From Chitinophagaceae bacterium (GTDB taxonomy: Bacteria; Bacteroidota; Bacteroidia; Chitinophagales; Chitinophagaceae), in the NCBI GenBank assembly GCA_035439525.1, contig DAORKK010000001.1, positions 3,695 to 67,694 of the forward strand: DNA of 64,000 nt, in the 5' to 3' direction. Shown piece after piece: positions 10,246 to 55,140 of the stretch (position 1 is the first letter of the stretch; every line of letters begins with the position of its first letter). A program made the translations under genes and the position numbers. A model generated the notes under the pieces. It was not told the DNA's origin, did not search any database, and saw only the letters and a list, made by a program, of their open reading frames with translations.

Positions 10246-10408
10246 CAGTCGGCAGTAGGCAATATACAGTCGGCAGGCGGCAGATAGCAGTAGGCAGCCT
10301 GCAGGCGGCAGTAGGCAGGCAGTAGCCGGCAGGCAACAGTAGGCAGACGGCAGATAGCTGCACCTGTCAGAAGACTGCCACCTGCCTACAGCCGGCTGGC
10401 GACTGCTA
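10246..10408. repeat. Degenerate CAGNNGG heptamer array with an inverted arm
   Basis: About 16 units at 10246-10357 (cagtcgg, cagtagg, caggcgg, cagatag...); inverted arm at 10375-10405 abuts the pyrG stop; 10339-10353 can pair with 10375-10389. Confidence 0.9.
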
Positions 10409-12055
10409 AATCATTTCACTCTGCAGCAAGGGATTCCTGGCTTCCACTTTTTTTTCGGCAAATTCCTTGGCCGCTTTAATAAAATGAACAAATACGGGTT
10501 GCGGGTTTTCTACGGTGCTCTTCAGTTCCGGGTGGTACTGAACCCCGATAAAGAAAGGATGATTAGCCAGTTCGATTATTTCCACGAGACCTGTGCCAGG
10601 GTTTTTACCACTGGCCATCATGCCGGCCTTTTCAAACTGTTCGAGGTAGCTGTTATTAAACTCCCAACGGTGACGATGTCTTTCGCTGATCGATGTATTG
10701 TTATAAATACGATGAGCCAATGTGCCTTCCTTGATATCACAAGGATAAGCGCCTAAACGCATGGTGCCCCCTTTGGCCGTTACTTTTTTCTGCTCTTCCA
10801 TCAGGTCGATCACCGGTTCTTTTGTATCCGGGTCCATTTCAGTTGAATGGGCGTCCTTTAATCCCAGTACATTCCGCGCAAATTCAATCGCGGCCATCTG
10901 CATTCCCAGGCAGATACCAAAGAAAGGCAGTTTATTTTCACGGGCATATTTCACGGCTACGATCTTGCCTTCCACCCCCCTGTGCCCGAATCCCGGGGCC
11001 ACCAGCAGACCATCAAGGCCGGCGAGTTTTTCCACTACATTATCATCGGTGATGAATTCGCTGTGTACATTCACGATCTGCACCTGGCATTCATTGATTG
11101 CCCCGGCATGTATAAAGGATTCCAGGATGGATTTATAGGCATCCTGCAATTCAAGGTATTTGCCGATGAGTCCGATGGTTACTTTGCCTTTGGGATATTT
11201 CAGTTTATCGAGAAATTCCTTCCATTTTGTCAGTTCGGGTTCCTGGTAACCGGTAATATTCATTTTCTTGAGTACGATCTTATCCAATCCTTCCCGCATC
11301 ATCAGCAGGGGCACTTCATAAATCGTTGATGCATCGATGGATTCGATCACCGCTTCCTGTTTCACATTACAGAACAGGGCTATTTTGCGGCGGATTTCAG
11401 GGCCGAGCGTCCGTTCAGTCCGGCAGACAATAATATCCGGGTGTACACCTTCCTGGCTCAGCATCCGCACACTGTGCTGCGTGGGTTTGGTCTTCAGTTC
11501 TTTTGCTGCTTTCAGGTAAGGGATCAGGGTCAGGTGCACCACTACGGCATCTTCGTCAGGCAATTCCCATTGTAACTGCCGTACGGCTTCCACAAAGGGC
11601 AAGGATTCGATATCCCCAACTGTTCCACCGATTTCAGTAATTACAATATCATAATCGCCGCTTTGCCCGATCAGCTGCATTCTTCTTTTTATCTCATCCG
11701 TAATATGTGGTACTACCTGTACGGTTTTGCCAAGATAGGCCCCTTCCCTTTCTTTGTTGATCACCGTCTGGTAGATCCGGCCCGTGGTTACGTTATTGGC
11801 CTGGGTGGTAAATATATTCAGGAAGCGTTCATAGTGACCGAGATCAAGATCCGTCTCCGCCCCGTCTTCGGTAACAAAACATTCCCCGTGTTCATACGGA
11901 TTGAGGGTGCCCGGATCCACATTGATATACGGATCAAATTTCTGGATTGTCACACGCAGGCCTCTTGCCTGGAGTAATTTGGCAAGCGATGCCGCGATGA
12001 TTCCTTTTCCTAATGATGAAGTAACGCCTCCCGTAACAAAGATGTATTTAGCCAT
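10406..12055 (-). CDS. pyrG: CTP synthase
   Basis: [44 protein letters not shown] and QYHPE; start moved to the ATG at 12055. Confidence 0.98.
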
Positions 12056-12334
12056 AATGGTCAGTTTAGTCAATTAAAAAAGGGAGGAACAAAAAAAATA
12101 CTGCATCCCGGTAACCCGGAACTACTCAATATTTATCCATAAAAATTCTGAAAATTCGCCCCACCCAGCTGACCATCGGAAGTAGTTCGGCAGAAAAAAT
12201 CCGGGAGGTCATGTAAAGGTAATAGAAATTTACTTGCCGGTAAAATGAGCAATCCTGGATGTGGAAAAAACAGTAGTTTAGTGAGGACAATTTATACCCG
12301 GATTTTAACCCAGCAATAACCGGCCGGTTTCATT

Positions 12335-13393
12335 ATGCGTATCGGACTCTTTTTCACCCTTCTGACCCAGTTTTCCGGCTTCGGGTCATTCCTCATTGCA
12401 CAGGAGGATGACAGAATCCGCTTCATCCAGGGTGCTGGCACTTCGGTATTTTCTTTTACAAACAGTTTCTTTTATGACCAGGAAGTAAGTTTGCCTGTTC
12501 GTTCCATCGAAATAGCTGATTTCCGCTTTGACAGTTCTAAAAACGGATACCTGGACAATTCCTGCAGCGGAGCCCGTTATTGTAAAATAAAAACGGAGTT
12601 GACCTGGACGCCCCTGCTAAACCGGTATTTCAGCAGGAACCTGGATCCGGCCTCCCCTTATAGTCTTTTCATTGTTATCCGGTCTTATTGGTTGCAGGAA
12701 GGAATCCTTCCGGAAATCAACCAGCGTAAAATTGTTCAAAAAGACTGGCTCAACGAAAGTGAATGGGGCGGTTTTTGCAAAGCAGGTTTGGATATCTATA
12801 TCCGGACCGGCCAACAACTGCAGCCGCTTTTTAAAATAGATGACCGGTTTCTGAATTATTTCCCCTTTAACCCAACCCGGATGAAGGATTTTTTCTTTCT
12901 GCCCTTTGATTCGGTAGCACGCAGACTTATACAGACCGATTTGTCCGGACAACTGGCCAACCGGAAAAAACTGGAGATTGCAGCCGTGGATAGCTTCTAT
13001 AAGGCAAGATTTCATCACCCCGTTCTGAGAGATAGTACCCTGCAGCAAGGGATCTTTTATACATTCCGCGATTTCCTGGCCAATAAACCGGTCAGCGAGG
13101 AAATCCGGATCAGCCGGGGCAATCTGACAGATGAGTTATATATCCGGAATAAGGGCGGCGAAAGCCTGGTAACTGACTATTGGGGGGTATATGACGGTAA
13201 AACGCTTTATATCAAATCGGCCTATAATCTTTTTCCGGCTGTAAAAATGGAAAACAGCTTTGAGATCTACGGAACCCGTCAATTGGAAAACCGGCATAAT
13301 CTACCACAGCGTGGTGACCTGATCCGCGTGAACAAGATGACTATGCGCAGGAAGATACTTCAGGTTGATATGGAGAACGGAGAACTATATTGA
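12335..13393 (+). CDS. Hypothetical exported protein
   Basis: 352-aa ORF with a signal-like N-terminus; no family recognised. Confidence 0.6.
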   Translation: MRIGLFFTLLTQFSGFGSFLIAQEDDRIRFIQGAGTSVFSFTNSFFYDQEVSLPVRSIEIADFRFDSSKNGYLDNSCSGARYCKIKTELTWTPLLNRYFSRNLDPASPYSLFIVIRSYWLQEGILPEINQRKIVQKDWLNESEWGGFCKAGLDIYIRTGQQLQPLFKIDDRFLNYFPFNPTRMKDFFFLPFDSVARRLIQTDLSGQLANRKKLEIAAVDSFYKARFHHPVLRDSTLQQGIFYTFRDFLANKPVSEEIRISRGNLTDELYIRNKGGESLVTDYWGVYDGKTLYIKSAYNLFPAVKMENSFEIYGTRQLENRHNLPQRGDLIRVNKMTMRRKILQVDMENGELY

Positions 13394-13400
13394 TCAGTTG

Positions 13401-53902: not shown

Positions 53903-53984
53903 AAAGTTGGCAGGTTGACAAGGTTTGTACTAAGAAAGCCCCCTTGTTAACCTGTCAACTTATCACCCTATCAACCTTCAATCA
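53887..53984. repeat. Octamer arrays in inverted orientation
   Basis: aaagttaa caagttaa aaagttgg caggttga ... ttaacctg tcaactta tcacccta tcaacctt, spanning the ATP-grasp stop to the ligase ATG. Confidence 0.85.
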
Positions 53985-55094
53985 ATGAACCTCAACTATA
54001 AAACCTTCACCCTCGGCGTAGAAGAAGAGTACATGGTCCTCGACCCGCACACTTTTGAGCTGAAAAGCCACGAACAGCGCATTGTACATGAGGGTCAGAA
54101 AATGATCAAGGACAAAGTAAAGGCGGAGATGCACCAGGCGGTAGTGGAAGTAGGCACGGATATCTGTGCCGATATTGACGAAGCCTGGAGTGATGTGGCG
54201 GCTCTTCGGAAAACAATCAGTGGTATTGCCGAAAGCCTGGGTTATTCCATGGGCGCTGCCGGAACACATCCATTCAGTCACTGGGAAAGCCAGCTGATCA
54301 CCGACCATATCCGGTATAGTGAAATAGTGAATGAATTACAGGAAGCCGCCCGGAGTAACCTGATCTTCGGATTGCATGTGCACGTGGGCATGGAAAGCCG
54401 TGAAATGGCCAATCATATAGCCAACAGCACCCGCTATTTCCTGCCACATATTTTTGCCCTGAGTACCAATTCCCCTTTCTGGGAAGGCCGCATGACCGGG
54501 TATAAATCTTTCCGCACCAAGGTCTTTGATAAATTCCCACGCACCGGTATTCCAGATGCTTTTGAGAGTATTGAAGCATATGACAATTATGTCAAGCTGC
54601 TGATCAAGACCAATTGTATTGATAATGCAAAAAAGATCTGGTGGGACCTCCGGGTTCACCCCTTCTTTAATACGGTGGAATTCCGGGTATGCGACATTCC
54701 CCTGACAGTGGATGAGACCATCACCCTGGCTGCTTTATTCCAGGCCATCTGCGCCAGGATTTATATGCTGCGTTCCAAGAACCTCAACTTTATTCAATAC
54801 AGCCGGGCCCTGCTCAATGAGAATAAATGGCGGGCCAGCCGGTATGGTGTGGATGGCTACCTGATTGACTTCGGAAAGGAAGAAGAAGTGAATACCCGGG
54901 CCCTGATCTATGAATTGCTCGACTTCCTTGACCCGGTACTGGACCACCTGGGCAGCCGGCACCGGATTGCGAATGTGCACCGGATTCTCGAACATGGCAC
55001 CGGGGCAGACCGGCAACTGGCCGTATTTGAACAAACCAAGAACCTGACCGATGTGGCCAAATTTATTCAAAGCCAGTACCTGGCGGGAATCTGA
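53985..55094 (+). CDS. Carboxylate-amine ligase (GCS2/YbdK family)
   Basis: TLGVEEEY, LHVHVG, STNSPFW and WWDLRVHPFFNTVEFRVCD. Confidence 0.92.
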   Translation: MNLNYKTFTLGVEEEYMVLDPHTFELKSHEQRIVHEGQKMIKDKVKAEMHQAVVEVGTDICADIDEAWSDVAALRKTISGIAESLGYSMGAAGTHPFSHWESQLITDHIRYSEIVNELQEAARSNLIFGLHVHVGMESREMANHIANSTRYFLPHIFALSTNSPFWEGRMTGYKSFRTKVFDKFPRTGIPDAFESIEAYDNYVKLLIKTNCIDNAKKIWWDLRVHPFFNTVEFRVCDIPLTVDETITLAALFQAICARIYMLRSKNLNFIQYSRALLNENKWRASRYGVDGYLIDFGKEEEVNTRALIYELLDFLDPVLDHLGSRHRIANVHRILEHGTGADRQLAVFEQTKNLTDVAKFIQSQYLAGI

Positions 55095-55098
55095 AATA

Positions 55099-55140
55099 AA
55101 GTACGAAGTACGAGGTACGAGGTACGAAGTACGAAGTGAA
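55099..55140 (+). repeat. AAGTACG/AGGTACG heptamer array
   Basis: Five full units plus one partial, starting 4 nt after the ligase stop. Confidence 0.92.

Follow-up and report, generated by a model that had tools for sequence, protein, structure and literature searches.

What are the short tandem arrays that recur at gene boundaries along a 64,000-nt stretch of Chitinophagaceae DNA (the window; G000:C1:3695–67694), and why does their G-rich strand read from the gene boundary into the spacer? An earlier interpretation made from the letters and open reading frames (ORFs) of the window (the sequence-only reading) listed 11 arrays of 7- or 8-nt units, and all of them were found at or near the same positions by Tandem Repeats Finder (TRF) and direct reading. 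An explanation has to account for the architecture of the arrays, their polarity, their anchoring at stop codons, the units and inner motif that they have in common, filled and empty sites in relatives, slippage-type changes in copy number, and turnover of units, all of which are observed. We suggest, with a probability of roughly 0.7, that each array is a terminal arm, in fixed orientation, of a small DNA insertion cassette with a palindrome-like layout, and that these cassettes form one family. The complete cassette carries a gene for a four-helix-bundle protein (TIGR02436/PF05635), and the window arrays are probably the arms of gene-less copies.

Genome G000 is a metagenome-assembled genome (MAG) of 4.0 Mb, 91% complete and fragmented into 435 contigs, the ends of which often fall in arrays. 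The relatives of the flanking genes place it in an uncultured genus of Chitinophagaceae. Genes were called with a simple ORF scorer of our own, which is crude; the 3110 genes obtained make up 82.5% of the genome. The scan for period-7 repeats proposed by the sequence-only reading gave 833 TRF rows in the genome, compared with 70 in a block-shuffled genome; period 6 gave 90 rows and period 9 gave 296. Merging yields 857 period-7 arrays, which cover 28.5 kb and comprise about 180 rotation- and strand-canonical units, the commonest being AGTAGTT, GAGTAAT, AAGTACG, AGCTAGA, GAGTGGT, and CGGGAGT. These arrays are 62% wholly intergenic, and another 19% straddle a gene boundary, although only 17.5% of the DNA is non-coding. 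By contrast, most arrays with a period of 6, 9, or 12 nt are found within genes. Convergent spacers are enriched (206 of 586 arrays, compared with 16% of spacers) and divergent spacers are depleted. No array had been seen deep inside a coding sequence in the window, and genome-wide only 24 of 369 rows (score ≥ 45) are of this kind, most of them 20–130 nt from an over-extended ORF start; rare in-frame arrays in the MutL and TrpE genes are clear exceptions.

The units also resemble one another. When 80 distinct units are aligned to a frame R-G-N-W-G-T-N, equivalent to the NRGNNNG frame recognized previously, the log-likelihood is −519, compared with −561 ± 6 for shuffled units. The shared frame is only suggestive, because related units are not independent. 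In the G-rich orientation, the arrays contain 30% A, 37% G, 25% T, and 8% C, and they close all three reading frames in 246 of 549 cases (45%), compared with 67 (12%) in the C-rich orientation and 63 (11%) after shuffling.

Of 549 arrays, 436 have a G-rich strand that runs away from the closest gene boundary (binomial p = 1e-45), as do 204 of the 214 arrays that lie within 10 nt of a stop codon. This confirms the polarity described for the window, with the limit that ‘from the boundary into the spacer’ is meaningful only relative to the nearest boundary. When scored against transcription instead, orientation in co-directional spacers is near random (161 vs 136). Neighboring arrays in one spacer face each other (+/−) in 117 cases, point apart (−/+) in 6, and are in tandem in 64. 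The arrays also start at or near stop codons, as had been proposed. The position of the array start shows a sharp peak from −6 to +6 nt of the stop-codon end; 58% of the 353 arrays with a stop codon behind them start at −20 to +10 nt, and in 122 of those 353 the stop codon is inside or overlaps the array. Toward start codons, the median gap is about 55 nt. The polarity persists in arrays without a detected partner (211 vs 58 at 3′ ends). Many of these apparently solo arrays probably do have partners, too short for TRF, which misses arms of two or three units; the arms at 21392–21408 and 30897–30910 are examples that we read directly from the sequence. A complementary partner within 600 nt is found on the inner side of 159 of the 549 arrays and on the outer side of 8, and 54 of the 117 facing pairs share an exact 7-mer, compared with 8.8% of random pairs.

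The last 40–60 nt of the genes that abut stop-anchored arrays are C-poor (0.12 vs 0.21) and G-rich (0.36 vs 0.25). A test for degenerate array sequence in these tails gave no lag-7 periodicity and a strong lag-3 periodicity. They could reflect a target preference, or they could be captured element sequence kept open by selection.

Which gene, if any, belongs to the arrays? A PF05635 profile detects nine genes in the genome, all intact and all on contigs other than C1, which holds the window, in agreement with the earlier remark that no four-helix-bundle gene is recognizable in the window. Four of the nine genes were checked, and all four are far above the TIGR02436 cut-off. Each of the nine genes is bracketed by inward-facing 7- or 8-nt arrays of matching unit; the units include AGCTGTT/GGTGTTA, AAGTTAT, GCTAGAA, AGTAGTT, AGGTTTAA, GGTGAGT, CAATTCGA, AAGTACG, and CAAGATA. 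Thus, the statement of the sequence-only reading that four-helix-bundle genes like those of rRNA intervening sequences (IVSs) or like Avd often sit between such arrays in Bacteroidota holds for 9 of 9 genes of this genome. About 360 intergenic spacers carry arrays without such a gene.

The gene-bearing and gene-less copies are linked by their units and by an inner motif. The motif AACAGCCC directly follows 120 of 549 arrays, across several unit families, and extends to (A/C)AACAGCCCCTnCT(A/G)AG. In the gene-bearing cassette on contig C44, the gene is enclosed by an innermost stem made of the motif and its complement. In the window, the motif is found at 23115, 23164, and 23213, and reversed at 51683 and 51905. 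On C138 and C44, the cassettes have AGTAGTT and GCTAGAA arms and a AACAGCCCC...CTAAGAA inner stem, and both the units and the stem are present at window positions 23094–23236 and 51679–51954. Because these unit families and the inner motif are common to the gene-bearing copies, the window arrays are best understood as gene-less copies of the same cassette family. Other families have specific cores: behind AAGTACG arms come, in this order, CTGACGTGCCTTGAAG..., AGGGGCTGTT, and an arm whose unit is different, whereas AAAAAGT arms lead into ATCCTATAGAGG....

Four small genomes of the genus (G009, G010, G014, and G017; 1.6–1.8 Mb) have no PF05635 match and no match to a four-unit frame pattern, and genomes of 3–5 Mb have 2–20 PF05635 genes. 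This contrast is confounded with genome size and with the narrow reach of the pattern, which is abundant only in G000 and G012 and is therefore no general detector of such arrays.

The comparison of orthologous spacers for filled sites, empty sites, and passenger genes, also proposed earlier, was made with relatives that are not independent of one another. G012, whose genes are about 80% identical at the nucleotide level, and G007 are syntenic with the window; the genes of the sister species G036 and G032 are about 90% identical to those of the window. In G007, all five window loci compared are short spacers with a terminator only, which are empty sites. The operon junction at 32239–32255 is a 17-nt spacer in the window and about 20–30 nt in G012 and G007, but in G018 and G013 the orthologous junction is occupied by a four-helix-bundle cassette. 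In G018 (L172, G018:C352), the cassette is complete, and the order is the stop codon, 9 nt, eight GGTCAGA-type units, the gene, a C-rich arm, 8 nt, and the start codon. The copy in G013 (L173, G013:C95) has a gene with in-frame stops, and its contig ends just past the gene, so that only one arm is visible; the visible arm units at the junction differ between G018 and G013. The window spacer TGGTATGAGTTAATCAG resembles a collapsed G013 arm (TGGTTCA...GGTTAATAG); the resemblance may be the footprint of a deletion or may be accidental. After gene 19078–21267, arrays are present only in the window and in three of the Chitinophagaceae orthologues examined, with units that are all different.

Conspecific contigs (strain loci such as L105 and L112) were found by their identical flanking proteins. 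They vary in copy number, with no presence or absence of a whole element among them. The arrays behave as minisatellites, with strain-level changes in copy number and concerted turnover of units. They share such changes with contingency loci, but they are not placed to switch a reading frame or a promoter. Orientation is not random, arrays are not equally common in coding sequences, and orthologous sites do not show gradual drift only, three outcomes that the sequence-only reading had set against its own proposal; microsatellite-type drift is clearly present in addition.

The individual window loci, given here on the + strand, illustrate these features. The left arm at 10246–10346, seen by TRF and in the sequence, has about 14 degenerate heptamers (CAGTAGG, CAGTCGG, CAGGCGG), is G-rich on +, and begins 38 nt from the start codon of gene 8349–10208(−). 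Its right arm at 10370–10405, which is below the TRF threshold, is C-rich on + (CTGCCACCTGCCTACAGCCGGCTGGCGACTG) and ends exactly at the stop CTA (10406–10408) of gene 10406–12073(−). A 3-unit trace of the left arm is found in G012 and none in G007. The second left arm, at 21324–21356 (TAGATAG/TAGTTAG × 4.7, G-rich on +), starts right after a hairpin and T-run at 21285–21323, themselves 3′ of gene 19078–21267(+). It is identical in G032 and absent in G007, G010, and G017. The right arm at 21392–21408 (GCCGACT GCCTGCT GA, C-rich on +) abuts the stop codon of gene 21409–22611(−) and is a contracted copy; G032 has about 5 units CTGCCNA there.

At 23094–23236 (TRF extent, 23094–23231), there are three tandem 49-nt modules, each an AGTTAGT-type array and then the inner motif GTCAACAGCCCCTTCTAA. 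The first unit provides the stop TAG (23104–23106) of ORF 22741–23106. With the flanking protein identical, there are 3 modules in the window, 2 in L112, and 1 in L111, L115, L118, and L120. The right arm at 23282–23310 is C-rich on + and consists of four copies of the reverse complement of AAGTACG, a unit unlike that of the left arm; a hairpin and T-run (23318–23345) come after it. AAGTACG itself, × 6 and G-rich on +, makes up the left arm at 30712–30752, 9 nt from the ORF start of gene 30011–30703(−). A second short copy, GGTACGAAGTACGA, is at 30804–30817, within a duplicated module of about 60 nt, and a short right arm at 30897–30910 (CTTCGTACTT), complementary to the left arm, lies 2–3 nt from the stop codon of gene 30913–32238(−). 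At this locus, G012 has unrelated sequence, and G007 has a 69-nt spacer.

The spacer 51544–51944 is the most complex. The left arm at 51601–51634 (TRF, 51609–51634; ACGAGCT/ACGAGTT × 3.7, G-rich on +) comes directly after a terminator hairpin at 51563–51594; G036 and G032 have about 13 units at this site, G012 has an orthologous array, and G007 has none. At 51679–51728, the inner motif TTCTTAGGAAGGGCTGTTG precedes a C-rich array, CTAACAG/CTAACAC × 4 (TRF, 51698–51728), and at 51902–51954 the inner motif CTTAGAAGGGGCTGTTG precedes another, ACTACTA/ACTACCG × 4.7 (TRF, 51922–51954). The last unit of the latter contains the stop CTA (51945–51947) of gene 51945–52769(−), and its unit mix and copy number vary among G012, G032, and strain L105. 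G012 has the same modules as the window, with the units changed in concert: ACCTAAC/AGCTAAC in the window is ACCTGAC/ACCCGAC in G012, and ACTACTA/ACTACCG × 4.7 is ACTCCCG/ACTACTA × 7.6, while the stop-proximal ACTACCGACTAG is conserved between the two. All modules are retained in G036 and G032, and the main difference is in copy number. Outside the arrays, the three species are about 98% identical in the core of this spacer, compared with about 90% in the genes.

A second repeat family lies between the arrays at 51729–51900. It reads AATACAAGG(A/T)CCCTCC...GGGATGACAA, then GGAAATACAAGATTTCTCGC...CCTGCCTACCGGACAGGCAGG...CGCTCGAAATACC, and it is about 98% identical in G036 and G032, again compared with about 90% for the genes. 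Related CCTGCCTGCCGGCAAAGGCAGG hairpins and GTCATCCCGACGAAGGAGG pieces recur next to arrays elsewhere. In strain L105, a small hairpin of this kind splits an array, and in G016 one splits the MutL arm.

An octamer-armed hairpin at 53887–53984 fills the spacer between genes 52946–53902 and 53985–55094. Its left arm (TRF, 53887–53908, period 8) is of the AAGTTAAC type and contains the stop TAA at 53900–53902, the core is ...CTAAGAAAG..., and the right arm, readable in the sequence at 53950–53981, consists of CCTGTCAA/CTTATCAC/CCTATCAA. There are two strain variants, and the G012 version is shorter. The last array, AAGTACG/AGGTACG × 5.6 at 55099–55137 (G-rich on +), has no visible partner and begins 5 nt past the stop TGA at 55092–55094. 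Strain L105 has 2.6 units, the unit order is different in L106–L110, and G012 lacks the array. Of the six public short-read contigs (Logan) with gene 53985–55094, five (L106–L110) end 33–34 nt after the stop codon, inside the AAGTACG array. Assembly breaks induced by arrays probably contribute to the 435 contigs of this MAG.

A full cassette has, in order, a C-poor and G-rich heptamer (or octamer) array, a short inner stem (often AACAGCCCCTnCTAAGAA), the TIGR02436/PF05635 gene, the reversed stem, and a C-rich array. With this symmetric design, the G-rich strand reads inward from both ends on either DNA strand. We propose that the cassettes entered as DNA insertions and persisted where they were harmless: in the gap between stop codon and terminator, in operon junctions, and, rarely, in-frame within protein linkers. 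The inward C-poor strand would be rich in stop triplets, which a period of 7 or 8 nt would put in all three frames, and an ORF hit at its end would be closed within a few codons because stop triplets reach every frame. This closure may explain why the chirality and the periods persist, at least for units that contain stops. Once inserted, the cassettes would behave mainly as neutral passengers, growing, shrinking, being duplicated module by module, and recombining so that mismatched pairs arise. As to the mover, our guess would be that the four-helix-bundle protein acts in trans and that host replication or repair contributes. A non-autonomous mobile cassette, of which the arrays would be footprints or termini, was among the possibilities raised by the sequence-only reading, and it is the one favored by the inward pairs, the common units and motif, and the filled and empty sites.

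A number of observations weigh against this explanation. Only about 30% of the arrays have a detectably complementary partner, and in many pairs the unit differs. Partner arms have a similarity of 0.838, compared with 0.831 for arms of the same family elsewhere, and the genome-wide comparison of arms gave no correlation of partner-arm lengths. No four-helix-bundle gene lies between the window arms, nor are there remnants at E ≤ 10, and when all six-frame pieces of ≥ 25 aa were searched with a profile of the nine proteins, the nine intact genes were the only matches, with no pseudogene fragments. The gene-less copies are thus not simply decayed gene cassettes. The argument from stop codons covers only part of the arrays, as 27% of them have none. 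The copies have diverged to 72–90% identity and are long-lived, with no sign of recent transposition. Neither a target-site duplication nor an exact insertion boundary can be defined, because the elements are shared by the closest genomes, and the spacers of distant ones do not align; at loci that allow a filled site to be set against an empty one, no duplication is visible, although the divergence of the flanks could hide one. Finally, a search of the genome found no transposase, reverse transcriptase, or other mobility gene associated with the arrays.

The arrays inside genes count on both sides. In the MutL gene (G000:C54:11678–11760, outside the window), the interdomain linker contains an in-frame arm pair, AGTCGGG × 4, core, and CACTCAC × 4. 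The left half of the linker is G-rich and the right half C-rich in 17 of 20 genus members (loci L122–L141), and the halves are mostly heptamer arrays with species-specific units; however, three species have no clear arrays, with a linker of equal length. A TrpE-like gene (G000:C228:570–641, outside the window) has in-frame C-rich heptamer arrays, and a 4-unit array is at the same site in 7 of 7 aligned genus members. Its unit is ACTCACA, ACTCACG, CTCGCAG, or ACTCGAA according to species, where ACTC is constant and the last three bases change in concert; the TrpE of G000 is about 60 nt longer than the others. These two cases are examples of long residence and concerted unit turnover, and they fit evolution in situ as well as insertion. 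They are also evidence that the sequence can insert or survive at any site that tolerates it.

With respect to mobility genes, the search suggested by the sequence-only reading succeeded for TIGR02436/PF05635, the nine genes of which are tied to arrays, and gave no enzyme associated with them. Reverse transcriptase (PF00078) has no match in the genome, which is 91% complete. The genome has four Y1_Tnp (HUH) genes, flanked by their own hairpins of the repetitive extragenic palindrome (REP) type (GTTCAACCCCGAAGGGGTTGAAC) and by no heptamer arrays. REP-associated tyrosine transposases (RAYT) or other HUH enzymes were therefore rejected as the mobilizer of the arrays, since the Y1 genes carry different repeats. 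Three of the Y1 genes are IS200/RAYT-like (C15:33594–33938, C33:26242–26580, and C31:7908–8252), with REP-like hairpins GTTCAACCCCGAAGGGGTTGAAC or GCCCCGTAGGGGC in their flanks, and belong to a separate repeat system.

Could the paired arrays act in RNA instead? They might be stems cut by RNase III, like those of 23S rRNA IVSs, or they might protect or insulate mRNA ends in the manner of REPs and bacterial interspersed mosaic elements (BIMEs), and so be kept by selection. We consider this unlikely, although it is the most probable of the alternatives. The arrays between a stop codon and a terminator or in operon junctions are almost certainly transcribed. The hairpin at 53887–53984 has an unbroken 20-bp stem on the sense strand only (−30 kcal/mol, z = −5.6), and both strain polymorphisms in it keep pairing via G.U, although these are two changes at one locus only. 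The layout of a gene inside a stem is shared with the ORF-bearing rRNA IVSs (PMC4990558), and the high identity of the non-array core of 51544–51944 would also be compatible with a role in RNA. However, stem mismatches in co-directional spacers genome-wide show no preference for G.U over A.C on the sense strand (103 vs 107), so there is no signal at the RNA level, and mismatches that are transversions are commoner than transitions. Most arrays have no complementary partner or a partner of another unit, and the arms of pairs do not co-evolve and are uncorrelated in length. An Rfam scan of the window matched only the small signal recognition particle (SRP) RNA and none of the arrays. That the arms do not co-evolve and that G.U is not favored both speak against the gene-less copies being under selection as RNA hairpins.

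A related idea is that the arrays are binding sites for a protein that reads a 7-nt register, either a post-transcriptional regulator or the four-helix-bundle protein, and that they regulate the neighboring genes. The sequence-only reading had mentioned an RNA-binding protein. The common frame R-G-N-W-G-T-N of many unit families agrees with this, as does the published precedent of intergenic TAACTGA repeats that point at start codons (PMC4679880); here, too, the C-rich strand points at downstream start codons. Nevertheless, we regard such sites as quite improbable. About 180 units in one genome, with turnover between sister species, are hard to fit to one specific binder, the copy number in strains is without visible constraint, the orientation is unrelated to transcription, and the G.U test above gave no sign of constraint on RNA. 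The shared frame may reflect common descent of the units rather than constraint.

It is very doubtful that the arrays are synthesized anew at the ends of the element and not copied along with it. In that case, a linear or hairpin intermediate ending in GGGGCTGTT would have its 3′ ends extended, before or during integration, by a polymerase that adds heptamers reiteratively, in the fashion of telomeres, perhaps with the Avd-like four-helix-bundle protein as a cofactor. Synthesis of ends de novo would explain one inner motif with many units, arms that are often unlike and do not co-evolve, and the fixed polarity. The earlier suggestion of templated repeat addition at transcript 3′ ends is not supported, since the arrays are genomic, are inherited at orthologous sites, and also occur near starts and inside genes, their orientation ignores transcription, and no reverse transcriptase was found. 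That they are ordinary microsatellites made by replication slippage in place, with a coincidental link to four-helix-bundle genes, is highly improbable: it fits the variation in copy and module number between strains, the concerted drift of units at orthologous sites, TrpE and MutL included, and the MutL linker that is equally long with and without arrays, but it is already contradicted by the statistics of polarity and motif, because slippage alone, as the sequence-only reading had argued for polarity and placement, does not predict the inward polarity (436/549; pairs 117 vs 6), the stop-codon anchoring, a constant inner motif beside different units, family-specific cores, 9 of 9 four-helix-bundle genes between matched arms, or a tenfold excess of period 7 over period 6.

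How does the proposed cassette compare with known systems? To our knowledge, the heptanucleotide repeats of Cyanobacteria, Beggiatoaceae, and Bacteroidota have been catalogued since 1990, with their origin and role unexplained; the cyanobacterial short tandemly repeated repetitive (STRR) heptanucleotides were reportedly described by Mazel et al. in 1990. Like STRR and TAACTGA repeats, the present arrays are tandem heptamers, predominantly intergenic, abundant in some genomes and absent from relatives; one orientation closes all frames, repeats overlap ORF ends, and Bacteroidetes are among the hosts. The published accounts describe direct repeats of one unit, whereas here there are many unit families, which differ from the published units, and the orientation follows the position in the spacer. 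According to MacGregor (2015), TAACTGA repeats are intergenic, with stops in all frames, in Beggiatoaceae, Cyanobacteria, and five Bacteroidetes, and a post-transcriptional regulator was proposed for them; the passages searched mention no four-helix-bundle gene, intervening sequence, inward-facing paired layout, or conserved inner motif (PMC4679880). 

A close parallel to the gene-bearing cassette is the 23S rRNA IVS with an S23p/PF05635 ORF of Leptospira and Coxiella burnetii, in which a protein of the same family is encoded within a long inverted-repeat stem; the ORF-bearing IVS of C. burnetii has been described (PMC4990558). Neither kind of element has a known mobility enzyme, and both are considered selfish insertions. 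Unlike IVSs, which are in helix 25 or 45 of 23S rRNA and are removed by RNase III, the elements here are between protein-coding genes or at their ends, their arms are tandem 7- or 8-nt arrays, and most copies have no ORF. No 23S (LSU) rRNA gene is assembled in G000, G012, or G036. REP/BIME sequences with RAYT are similar in that they are short imperfect palindromes after stop codons, with hundreds of intergenic copies and a non-autonomous majority, but REPs are not tandem arrays, and the Y1_Tnp genes here have REP-like hairpins of their own. Miniature inverted-repeat transposable elements likewise have terminal inverted arms, a small non-coding majority with a few gene-bearing relatives, and family-specific cores; however, the gene here encodes a 120-aa helical bundle with no recognized transposase fold, and the arms are internally repetitive and hypervariable. 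The Avd proteins of diversity-generating retroelements are distant relatives of the four-helix-bundle proteins (DivGenRetAVD, 35.6 bits; cut-off, 80). Membership in such a retroelement was rejected, as the genome has no reverse transcriptase and there is no pair of template and variable repeats.

Our literature search found no paper that links heptamer arrays to TIGR02436 genes, and no description of the inward-facing paired layout, the inner motif, or the gene-less majority. Heptamer repeats and ORF-bearing rRNA IVSs are each known separately. If the link between the heptamer repeats and the four-helix-bundle element is correct, the heptamer repeats of this genome become the oriented arms of a definable element, the complete form of which carries the gene annotated as a ‘23S rRNA intervening-sequence protein’, and the repeats gain a candidate protein partner and a connection to rRNA IVSs. 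There are also practical consequences. The arrays break short-read assemblies and provide hypervariable markers at the strain level. A third of the genes that abut an array take their stop codon from it, and arrays are in-frame in MutL and TrpE, so that gene annotation is affected.

The SRP RNA matched in the Rfam scan is of the small Bacteroidales type and lies at 24186–24292 on the − strand (86.7 bits). It is directly adjoined, at 24111–24185, by a 31-nt tandem repeat × 2.5 (CTACGGAGGGTAAACCCGCCTTCGATAAAA).

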